From assembly GCA_000004695.1 (NCBI GenBank), contig CM000152.2, forward strand, positions 3,776,001 through 3,840,000: 64,000 bases of DNA, written 5' to 3'. The translations under genes were made by a program, and so were the position numbers. This document shows, piece by piece, positions 38,959-41,323 of this stretch (position 1 is the stretch's first letter; each line of letters begins with the position of its first letter). The notes below the pieces were generated by a model. That model was given only the letters and a program-made list of their open reading frames with translations. It ran no database searches and was not told the origin of the DNA. The DNA is from Dictyostelium discoideum. Taxonomy: Eukaryota.

Positions 38959-41323
38959 TTATTGAATAGTTTGTTCAGCAAGAATAATATCACCATCTTT
39001 AATATTTAATGATAAAATTGAATCATTTGTGGTGTATGGTTTACCATTAAATGAGAATTTCAAGTGATTAATATTAATTTTTTCTTTGGTTGCATCCTCC
39101 AATTTATTTAATTTCACTTTTTTATTAACTCTAAAGTGAATAAATTTACATATTGAAGAACCATCACTTGAACGAGTATTTGTTTGAACTTTAATAATAA
39201 TTTCATCATCTATATTAAAACCATTTTCTACCTTTTCTTTTTCTTTTTCTTTTTCATTTTCCTGATTTTTGCTTTCTCTTTCATCATCATTTTCATATTC
39301 TCTTTCTCTTTTTTTTGATGATGGGAATGGGGGTTTAGAAGGTACTGAAGAACTTTGAGTTAAAGAAGGAACCCAAATATCTGAATAATAGCGACTCTTT
39401 TCAAAATATGATTGATACAATTTTAAAGTTCTATTATTATGTATATAAAAAAAAAAAAGTTAATAAAATTAATTTAATTTAAACATATATATATATAATA
39501 TATATATAATTTACATACTTTTGATAATTTATTTCTTTAATATTTAAATCATCAGATGAAAAAGGATCAGTATGAATTTCTACACCTAAAATTTTATGAA
39601 AATTATAATAACTAAATGAATCTAAAACGTGAGAATTCCAAAATGATTCCAAGATTGGTGGTGGTTGTATTGATGATCTTTGAAAAACAAAAACTTGATT
39701 ATGACTAACCTCTTGATCATTCTCTTTAGTTGGTGTATCTTCAAATATCTTTAAAATTAAGAATCTAACATACTCTGAAGCTAAACTAAATCCAAATTTA
39801 TCTAAATTCGATCTACAAATAAGTGGATAAAAATTAAAACTATTCATTACTCTTGTTTCATAACTTCTAATATTTAATCTAATTTTTCTTCTTATTATTT
39901 CAATTTCATCATTAATTAAATTATTATCATTCATTTCATCATCTTGAATAAAATTTAATACTGATTGTGGTTTTTTTGAAAAAAGTATACTTTTTTTTTC
40001 ATCTTCATATTCATTTACATTTTCTTTTTCTTTTTCATTTTCTTTTTCTTTTTCTTTTTCTTTTTCATTTTCTTTTTCTTTTTCTTTTTCTTTTTCTTTT
40101 TCTTTTTCTTTTTCTTTTTCTTTTTCTTTTTCTATTTCTATTTCTATTTCTTTTTGTTTTTGTTTTTGTTTTTCATCTATTATTGAAGACGATTTTTGTG
40201 TTGGCTCTGTTGTAGTTGAAGTTGTTGTTTTTTTGGTTGGTGTAAGTTTATTTTTTTTGTCGTTACTTGGTACTCGAATAGTGAGAACATTATTTCTTGT
40301 TATTATTTCTTTATTTTCACTTTTATTATCCACTTTATCATATTGATTATTATTTATTGGTATTGGTGTTGATGTTGTTGTCGATGATAATAATGATGAT
40401 AATGGTAATGATTCTTTCGATGTGGATGTTGATTTTAATGATGTTGTTGATGTTGATGTTGATGTTGATGTTGATGTTGATGTTGATGTTGATGTTGATG
40501 TTGATGTTGATGTTGATGTTGATGTTGATATTGATGTTGATCTAGGTGTTGATCTAGATGTTGATGTTGATGGTGTTGATGTTGATGGTGTTGTTGATGT
40601 TGATGGTGTTGATGTTGATGGCGTTGTTGATGGCATTGGTGTTGTTGATTTTGATGGTGTTGTCGATTTTGATGGTGATTTTGATGGTGTTGATTTTGAT
40701 GGTGATTTTGATGGTGTTGGTGGTGCTCCATATTCTTTTAATGTAATATAAAATGTTCTAAAATGCATGTGAGCACTAACAAATTCATTTGGAAAACTTT
40801 TTAAAACCCCTTCAATACTTTCTAAATTATCAGAGAATAATGATGTTTTAATATTTAATATATCATTATGTGTTGCTATATATGTTTGAATATCATAAGC
40901 ATTGAAATAATTTAAATAGACTTCATTAAGCGCTAATTTTCTTTCCGTAATTGGAAATTTATAAGTCTCATTTAAATGAGCTTGGATCTTTATTAAATTT
41001 AAAATCGTAAATTTTACAATATCTTTAAATTGTGACTTATTTGTTGGTATCTCCACATTGTTATTATTTGATTTTTGTTGTTTTTGACAAAGATAACATA
41101 TACATTGTGTTGATTCAAATTTTGTTAACAAAAGTAGTTCTTTAATTTTGTAAATGTGAAAAGCTCTTGATTGTTCTCTTAATTTTATCTTATTACTAAC
41201 TGCAATTTGATGTAATTCTGTTATTGGTAATCCTTCTAATATCCTTGAATTATGTGTATAAAGTGATTTTTCACTTGATTTAACGCTAAATTTTATAATT
41301 ATATCTTGACTCGCTTTCTCCAT
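38959..41323 (-). CDS. Ser/Thr/Pro-rich protein with a C-terminal SUMO-like (Rad60-SLD-type) ubiquitin-fold domain. Exons on minus: 41323..39519, 39430..38959.
   Basis: Exon 1 runs MEKASQDIIIKFSVKS… through PTPSKSPSKSTPSK and (ST)n hexanucleotide repeats, then (KE)n repeats, to …DLNIKEINYQ. A GTATGT..AATAATAG intron (phase 2) joins …K TLKLYQSYFEK… to the terminal domain IIIKVQTNTRSSDGSSICKFIHFRVNKKVKLNKLEDATKEKININHLKFSFNGKPYTTNDSILSLNIKDGDIILAEQTIQ*. That domain aligns position-by-position with the SUMO core (IHFKVK…LRFLFEGQRI…L.MEDEDVIEV). There is no C-terminal GG. Confidence 0.6.

Follow-up and report, generated by a model that had tools for sequence, protein, structure and literature searches.

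Proteins of the Rad60/Esc2/NIP45 (RENi) group combine a polar low-complexity N-terminus with two SUMO-like domains (SLDs) in the C-terminal half, the first of which (SLD1) can diverge beyond recognition (PMC549199). In NFATC2IP, SLD1 serves SMC5 and SLD2 the backside of UBC9, and the substitutions Rad60 E380R and NFATC2IP D394R abolish the interaction with UBC9 (PMC11065178). Plant GRDPs belong to a different group, the DUF1399 or GRDP-like family, and the 'glycine-rich domain' of the plant GRDP2 orthologues has the consensus [CG]GGGCGG[GC] (PMC4299439). This study concerns a gene on the minus strand of a 64,000-nucleotide stretch of the Dictyostelium discoideum genome (GCA_000004695.1, contig CM000152.2, positions 3,776,001 to 3,840,000), hereafter the window, whose product ends in an SLD. 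It is probably a two-exon dictyostelid gene for a multidomain protein carrying a GRDP-like domain and an SLD, in which the latter would act as a tethered, non-covalent SUMO mimic.

The SUMO-like domain

A preliminary description of this locus, made from the sequence alone, had read the last ~80 residues of the product as SUMO-like, and residues 677-758 are confirmed as a real SUMO-like beta-grasp domain by profile searches, a shuffle control, a structural model and a fold search. When the C-terminal 93 amino acids were scanned alone, the Pfam Rad60-SLD model (PF11976) matched with E=2.6e-5 and 24.4 bits, marginally above its gathering score of 23.8, and the Pfam ubiquitin model matched more weakly (E=0.005). 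All 60 matches listed in a phmmer search of the Protein Data Bank (PDB) with the C-terminal domain are SUMO1, SUMO2, SUMO3 or Smt3. A custom SLD/SUMO profile, built from SUMOs, ubiquitin and the SLDs of homologues, gave 39.5 bits for the real sequence and no more than 11.7 for ~2000 composition-preserving shuffles. The best AlphaFold2 model, based on an alignment of three sequences, is a beta-grasp with the order beta-beta-alpha-beta...beta (pLDDT 82.8, pTM 0.67). With this model as the query, the top 50 Foldseek matches in the PDB were all SUMO1/2/3/Smt3, including Smt3- and SUMO1-fusion constructs (E from 2.8e-7, query-normalised TM-score 0.65-0.77, 22-28% identity). When a word index was searched for homologues with the SLD alignment, the only sequence retrieved was the open reading frame (ORF) in the window itself.

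The likeness to SUMO1, SUMO2 and Smt3 extends to particular motifs. The beta2 strand is IHFRV, compared to IHFKV in SUMO1, the segment LKFSFNG corresponds to LRFLFEG of SUMO1, and both the DGDII motif and the alpha1 residues K46/L47 are kept. At the positions which we take to line the groove for SUMO-interacting motifs (SIMs), SUMO1 H35/F36/K37/V38/K46/L47/R54 are represented by H/F/R/V/K/L/K. The domain differs from SUMO in an 8-residue insertion in the beta1-beta2 loop, in an Asn in the column of SUMO1 E67, SUMO2 D63 and Smt3 D68, and in being fused to the C-terminus of a 676-residue stretch rather than being a free modifier. The SUMO1 E67 column is also non-acidic in the aligned dictyostelid paralogues.

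The end of the domain, ...ILAEQTIQ*, aligns with ...IEVYQEQT of SUMO1, the stop codon falling two residues before the Gly-Gly position. The exon that encodes it holds no Met, so that the SLD cannot be made alone from an ATG. The lack of Gly-Gly, the early end and the lack of a start codon of its own imply that the SLD cannot enter the E1/E2 conjugation pathway. It is therefore an integral, permanently attached and non-conjugatable domain, as had been proposed from its end in TIQ instead of GG.

Gene structure and organisation of the predicted protein

The gene consists of two exons (41323-38959, minus strand), with window positions 38959-39430 forming the last one. Exon 1 runs from the start ATG at 41323 to GTATGT at 39518, and exon 2 from 39430 to TAA at 38961-38959. 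The spliced coding sequence is open over 2277 nt, and its conceptual translation has 758 amino acids. The following features were assigned, repeats being located with Tandem Repeats Finder (TRF).

40718..41323, minus strand: conserved N-terminal region, residues 1-202, of unassigned fold, with a CICYLC motif
40358..40717, minus strand: Ser/Thr/Pro-rich region, residues 203-322, PSKST units followed by (ST)n, from translation and TRF
39992..40174, minus strand: (KE)n/(EI)n hexanucleotide array, residues 384-444 (TRF 39991-40174, period 6, 30.7 copies, 91% matches)
39355..39913, minus strand: GRDP-like (DUF1399-related) all-helical domain, residues 471-627, interrupted by the intron, predicted from profile A1 and AlphaFold2
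39431..39518, minus strand: intron of 88 nt, phase 2, GTATGT...AATAG, 6.8% GC
39208..39354, minus strand: charged low-complexity linker, residues 628-676 (SSSVPSKPPFPSSKKREREYENDDERESKNQENEKEKEKEK...), with a basic KKRER patch and a short (KE)n array
38962..39207, minus strand: SLD, residues 677-758 (DEIIIKVQ...DGDIILAEQTIQ), a single beta-grasp without Gly-Gly
38959..38961, minus strand: TAA stop codon directly after ...TIQ, from sequence and translation

The exon join had been placed beforehand as a phase-2 junction between GTATGT at 39518 and AG at 39432-39431, and it is judged to be right on three grounds. The intron has consensus ends, and the AG at 39432-39431 is the only one inside it and the sole acceptor available. 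In an annotated homologue from Dictyostelium cf. discoideum, P0001, the same codon is interrupted by an intron of the same phase (...YQ(R/K)|TL(Q/K)(I/L)YQ.YFEK...). The profile of the helical domain is collinear across the junction, with positions 2-106 in exon 1 and 102-123 in exon 2; it is because this domain spans the intron that the join is held valid. The intron has 6.8% GC compared to 25% in the exons, and the predicted splice junction reads ...TATCAAAA|AACTTTAAAA.... An alternative donor, GTAAAT at 39514, was rejected by eye, since the exon 2 frame would then stop within a few codons. The SLD lies in the same exon as the last helix of the GRDP-like domain, so that the fusion of the two is independent of the splice.

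The exon-2 ORF (minus strand, 38959-39420), which translates ...FIHFRVNKKVKLNKL...LKFSFNGKPYTTNDSILSLNIKDGDIILAEQTIQ*, is identical in three independent sequencing runs. No transcripts of the gene were found, the Logan contigs that contain this ORF (L003-L005) being unspliced genomic DNA of ~99.4% identity. The exact sequences of the 758-residue protein, of the exon-1 ORF and of two neighbouring ORFs had no match in the protein collection searched. The region is repeat-rich with 19.7% GC, which is typical of dictyostelids.

The predicted protein comprises, in this order, the conserved N-terminal region, disordered spacers rich in S/T and in KE, the GRDP-like domain, the charged linker of ~50 residues and one SLD. 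Its body was previously regarded as a succession of (ST)n, PSKST and (KE)n arrays. The arrays are real, with TRF reporting 50.7 copies of a period-6 unit in the (ST)n array at 40419-40713 and a short (KE)n array in the linker at 39233-39261, but the body also includes the N-terminal region of 200 residues and the helical domain of 157. The N-terminal region is 41-48% identical to the P0001 locus by tblastx and visibly common to P0007; no Pfam family matched residues 1-202. It contains a possible degenerate SAP/HeH-like motif (GLPITELHQIAVSNKIKL...). Pfam SAP (PF02037) gave no match at the N-terminus of the window protein, and the SAP matches in the Tieghemostelium and D. purpureum paralogues are all sub-threshold (12.5-21.8 bits against a gathering score of 23.9). 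By tblastx, homology to the P0001 locus was not detected beyond 39361.

Several other candidates were rejected. The Pfam matches to Hamartin (20.1 bits) and TFIIA in residues 200-446, and to DUF5881 (16.2 bits) on the helical domain, are below threshold and regarded as compositional or due to chance. Inspected by eye, the SIM-like strings DDEIIIKV, NDEIEII and QDIIIKF fall within the SLD strand beta1 or one of the modelled helices, or are what a proteome rich in I and K commonly contains.

The GRDP-like domain and its homologues

The domain upstream of the linker was modelled by AlphaFold2 as all-helical, with pLDDT 83.8 and pTM 0.83 and with confidence in all five models. It carries the motifs EYVRF..LK, PPPILESFWNSHVLDS..Y, IHTDP, NYQK|TLKLYQSYF and DIW; the family consensus is EY.RFL.LK..D...LSPSPLID..WH.HILDT..Y...C...G..IHH.P.G...RY..TL..Y...FG....IW. 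Profile A1, built from this domain of the window protein and of three homologues, was compared with 1.84 billion representative sequences and matched 496 proteins at E<=1e-3, 31 of them at E<=1e-10. Among the 66 top A1 matches, 22 also match Pfam GRDP-like (PF07173, DUF1399), 24 match ubiquitin and 24 match Rad60-SLD. The A1 matches include P0008 (E=2.7e-24), P0017 (1.2e-16) and P0018 (9.5e-16), which score 46.6, 25.0 and 34.9 bits, respectively, with PF07173 (gathering score 22.7). The Pfam model covers only the P.P.ID..WH.H...Y..C part of the domain, model positions ~88-143 in these three matches. No direct PF07173 match of the window protein was obtained at E<=10, either at full length or with residues 445-630. 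The relationship of its helical domain to GRDP-like/DUF1399 is one of transitive homology, as judged by sequence comparison. With WNSH and IHTDP, the window protein has two of the four conserved His of WHxH...(I/V)HHxP, of which most family domains keep three or four.

A search with the C-terminal 315 amino acids revealed three homologues, P0001, P0002 and P0003. The closest is P0001, which is 57% identical in the helical domain and has the N-terminal region as well; like the window protein, it carries an insertion within the helical domain, for which the model shows a beta-hairpin. P0001 (L001 6001-7590) ends 9 codons after ...DIWIPSL and has neither linker nor SLD, and no SLD remnant was found downstream of its stop codon. 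Loss of the SLD is thus possible, as in P0001, and not every paralogue needs it for its helical domain. The neighbouring genes of the window and of the P0001 locus differ, and this lack of synteny means that P0001 is a paralogue or a relocated orthologue. P0002 from D. firmibasis and P0003 from D. discoideum, both named 'Ubiquitin-like domain-containing protein', are ~32% identical to the window protein and have the helical domain near the N-terminus, followed by a long low-complexity linker and a C-terminal SLD. The same succession of a GRDP-like domain and an SLD is found in P0009, P0013 and P0005 from D. purpureum and Tieghemostelium, and Tieghemostelium DLAC_01270, named 'Rad60/SUMO-like domain-containing protein', has two GRDP-like domains and two SLDs.

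The dictyostelid paralogues as a group (D. discoideum ACTFIW_007757, D. firmibasis RB653_007683, D. purpureum DICPUDRAFT_100122 and DICPUDRAFT_84807, and Tieghemostelium DLAC_01270) resemble the window protein in having a GRDP-like domain, a low-complexity linker and a C-terminal SLD without Gly-Gly. They differ from it in their overall identity of ~30% and in the presence of a short sub-threshold SAP-like motif instead of the N-terminal region of 200 residues. The dictyostelid SLDs vary at most SIM-groove positions. Further members of the family are a carboxylesterase fusion in D. firmibasis and transcripts of Biecheleria, a dinoflagellate, and Thecamoeba. The carboxylesterase with a C-terminal GRDP-like domain, P0006 (RB653_007679), lies four locus tags from P0002 (RB653_007683), and this proximity suggests local duplication and shuffling of the GRDP-like domain in dictyostelids.

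Plant GRDP1 and GRDP2 have a related helical domain with the motif P.P.ID..WH.H.L.T..Y...C. They differ in possessing a Gly/Cys-rich [CG]GGGCGG[GC] region and a putative RNP-1 motif and in lacking a ubiquitin-like domain (Ubl) (PMC4299439). Where the plant proteins have WHxH and IHHxP, the window protein has WNSH and IHTDP.

Association of GRDP-like domains with ubiquitin folds and Gly-Cys termini

The combination found in dictyostelids is part of a wider pattern. A detectable Ubl C-terminal to the GRDP-like domain is present in 56 of 152 family representatives. The chain ends exactly in Gly-Cys (...LRLRGC, ...RLSGC, ...EQRGC, ...NQIGC) in 52 of the 152, among which 41 have a detectable Ubl, and in 22 Gly-Cys proteins the terminal Cys occupies the column of the last Gly of ubiquitin/SUMO. 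These members, which include P0018, P0020, P0031, P0085, P0098, P0141 and P0152, mostly keep all four His. Two of them, from Biecheleria and Thecamoeba, come from transcriptomes, so that the ending is not an intron artefact. The Gly-Cys proteins (from Biecheleria cincta, Thecamoeba quadrilineata and many metagenomic sources) have the same domain order and helical domain as the window protein; they differ in their length of ~200-370 amino acids, in the mostly kept His and in their ...RGC or ...QGC end, a tail that the window protein does not have. The C-terminal Gly/Cys motif is absent from both the window protein, which ends in TIQ, and the dictyostelid paralogues.

A word-indexed search with the GRDP-like alignment returned only 10 bacterial/phage proteins. 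This branch (P0093, P0156-P0163; PF27765 by precomputed Pfam assignment, UCP032817-like) has Ser/Cys/Gly-rich tails ending GCGGGCGG[S/D/G], the same motif as the glycine-rich consensus of plant GRDP2 (PMC4299439). The branch loci include L006 5001-5750, and one member lies on a 130-kb T4-like phage contig. The genomic context of two of these relatives, on the phage contig and on a bacterial contig, gave no functional clue.

In the sequences compared here, a C-terminal Gly/Cys motif accompanies the GRDP-like helical domain from one kingdom to another. Within a GRDP-like and Ubl family that is spread across eukaryotes, the window protein seems to be a derived form without a tail; the dictyostelid branch appears to have lost the Gly-Cys terminus that is usual on the Ubls of the other members, and the window protein two of the four His as well. 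Judged by titles and abstracts, none of the literature retrieved on DUF1399/GRDP together with ubiquitin or SUMO appears to address this pairing. In one paper on DUF1399, ubiquitin serves only as a reference for quantitative PCR (PMC4299439). The DUF1399 publications found deal with plant GRDP genes and their phenotypes, and the part of them considered here describes no enzymatic activity.

Comparison with Rad60/Esc2/NIP45 proteins

The preliminary description had assigned the SLD to the Rad60/Esc2/NIP45 type and raised the possibility of a second SLD hidden upstream of the splice junction. With all filters off (hmmsearch --max), a scan of the 758 residues found a single SLD, at 677-752, and no second one, although a diverged beta-grasp within residues 1-470 could escape a sequence search. 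A six-frame profile search of the window found no other SLD. We take the SUMO1 E67 column to be equivalent to Rad60 E380 and NFATC2IP D394, and this position is occupied by Asn in the window SLD. No homology to RENi proteins was found outside the SLD, every non-SLD homologue found being of the GRDP-like family. The window protein shares with RENi proteins an integral, non-conjugatable C-terminal SLD after a long polar low-complexity region, and the same best Pfam model, PF11976. It differs from them in its single SLD, in the Asn at the equated position, and in its N-terminal region and GRDP-like domain, which RENi proteins lack. The assignment to Rad60/Esc2/NIP45 is therefore not supported. 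Proteins of the SUMO pathway could still be targets of an SLD, whatever its family.

Sequences flanking the gene

Directly upstream of the ATG at 41323, the gene's strand carries ~22 tandem copies of CAAAAA (window 41345-41476), and long poly(T)/poly(A) tracts occur further upstream, at ~41560-41860. This is probably leader or promoter sequence. A small ORF rich in Gly, Ser, Cys and His is located at 42145-42408 on the minus strand, with an apparent short intron at ~42416-42499 just upstream of it, seen by eye; the ORF resembles the small Dictyostelium proteins of hssA/2C/7E type. On the other side, an ORF of 690 amino acids (window 36628-38700, plus strand) contains an EGF-like Cys-rich motif (CLGEPECGGESHGYCSLTGCICYEPWVGVDC) and, at its C-terminus, a hydrophobic stretch. 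It is convergent with the SLD gene, the stop codons being ~260 bp apart.

Discussion

In the mechanism proposed here, the SLD would remain permanently tethered to the GRDP-like domain by the charged linker and act non-covalently as a mimic of SUMO. The conserved beta2/alpha1 surface (IHFRV, K, L) would be the docking site for partners with SIMs or for SUMO-pathway proteins, and such partners would be recruited to the sites at which the N-terminal region and the GRDP-like domain bind. Several observations weigh against this interpretation. The Rad60-SLD match is marginal and is not reported when the full-length protein is scanned. The other four of the five AlphaFold2 models of the SLD are of low confidence (pLDDT 42-60), the alignment having only three sequences. 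Within the SIM groove, Y51 is replaced by T and K39 by N, and P0001 indicates that at least one lineage can do without the SLD. Finally, the residue equated with the acidic UBC9 contact is the Asn mentioned above, because of which Ubc9-backside binding of the RENi kind would be less likely than mimicry at the SIM groove.

That the protein is nevertheless a RENi cofactor of the SUMO E2 enzyme, binding the Ubc9 backside through its SLD and acting with Smc5/6, seems improbable. In favour of it are Rad60-SLD as the best Pfam model, the lack of Gly-Gly, the long stretch of polar low-complexity sequence that precedes the SLD, and the fact that in RENi proteins SLD1 may be unrecognisable (PMC549199). 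Against this, only one SLD is present, the linker and the all-helical domain upstream of it leave no room for an adjacent SLD1, and Asn stands at the position equated with the UBC9 contact (PMC11065178). The nearest sequence and fold neighbours among the matches listed are SUMO proper, the non-SLD homology is all to the GRDP-like family, and a different D. discoideum RENi candidate is already on record (PMC549199). It is highly improbable that the domain is a conjugatable or processed modifier, such as a SUMO precursor fusion or a self-activating Ubl. The domain resembles true SUMO more than it does other Ubls, and protist relatives have a reactive-looking Gly-Cys end, but ...AEQTIQ*, like the ends of the dictyostelid paralogues, is neither Gly-Gly nor Gly-Cys, and release of a Ubl from the C-terminus of a fusion would need a cleavage on its N-terminal side. 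Still less credence is given to an artefact, whether an incorrect gene model or a likeness arising by chance in an AT-rich ORF of low complexity. The base composition, the repeats, the marginal Pfam score and the lack of transcript support would fit it, but the shuffle control, the fold search, the SLDs of the paralogues, the continuity of the helical domain over the intron and the agreement of three sequencing runs all argue to the contrary.

A more serious alternative, albeit a doubtful one, is that the SLD interacts chiefly with the GRDP-like domain of its own chain, with a part in the folding, regulation or autoinhibition of that domain, and is a relic of an ancestral module composed of a GRDP-like domain and a Ubl ending in Gly-Cys. 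The order of a GRDP-like domain followed by a Ubl is kept across distant eukaryotes, whether the Ubl is ubiquitin- or SUMO-like, so that the fold or its tail may outweigh SUMO-specific surfaces. The dictyostelid SLDs vary at most positions of the SIM groove. Plant GRDPs and the bacterial/phage relatives have Gly/Cys motifs in place of the Ubl, which points to a relationship between domain and tail. On the other hand, the loss of the Gly-Cys tail and of two of the four His from the window protein means that the ancestral coupling is probably gone, some 50 charged linker residues separate the two domains, and the window SLD retains the SUMO1-like IHFRV strand almost exactly. The tethered SUMO mimic is preferred for the window protein. 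As a tentative and rather unlikely proposal, this protein may go back to an ancient module, hitherto undescribed, of which it would be a derived form without the tail. In this module a four-His DUF1399/GRDP-like domain would act on or with a C-terminal Gly-Cys motif, carried on GGGCGG-type tails in plants, bacteria and phages and on the end of a ubiquitin/SUMO fold in many protists. The ubiquitin/SUMO-Gly-Cys fusions could then perform non-canonical, E1-independent chemistry, for example thiol- or metal-dependent or by an N-to-S acyl shift, and the dictyostelid SLDs would be non-reactive descendants re-used for SUMO mimicry.

The SLD itself is unsurprising, since paralogues have already been machine-annotated as 'ubiquitin-like domain-containing'. 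For annotation, the analysis brings two corrections, namely that the window protein is no Rad60/Esc2/NIP45 orthologue and that its 'low-complexity body' hides two conserved domains. The main interest lies in an unexpected combination, that of DUF1399-type domains and ubiquitin/SUMO folds, which seems not to have been described before. As Dictyostelium is genetically tractable, its SLD-bearing members could give the first experimental handle on the DUF1399-type domain and its pairing with Ubls.

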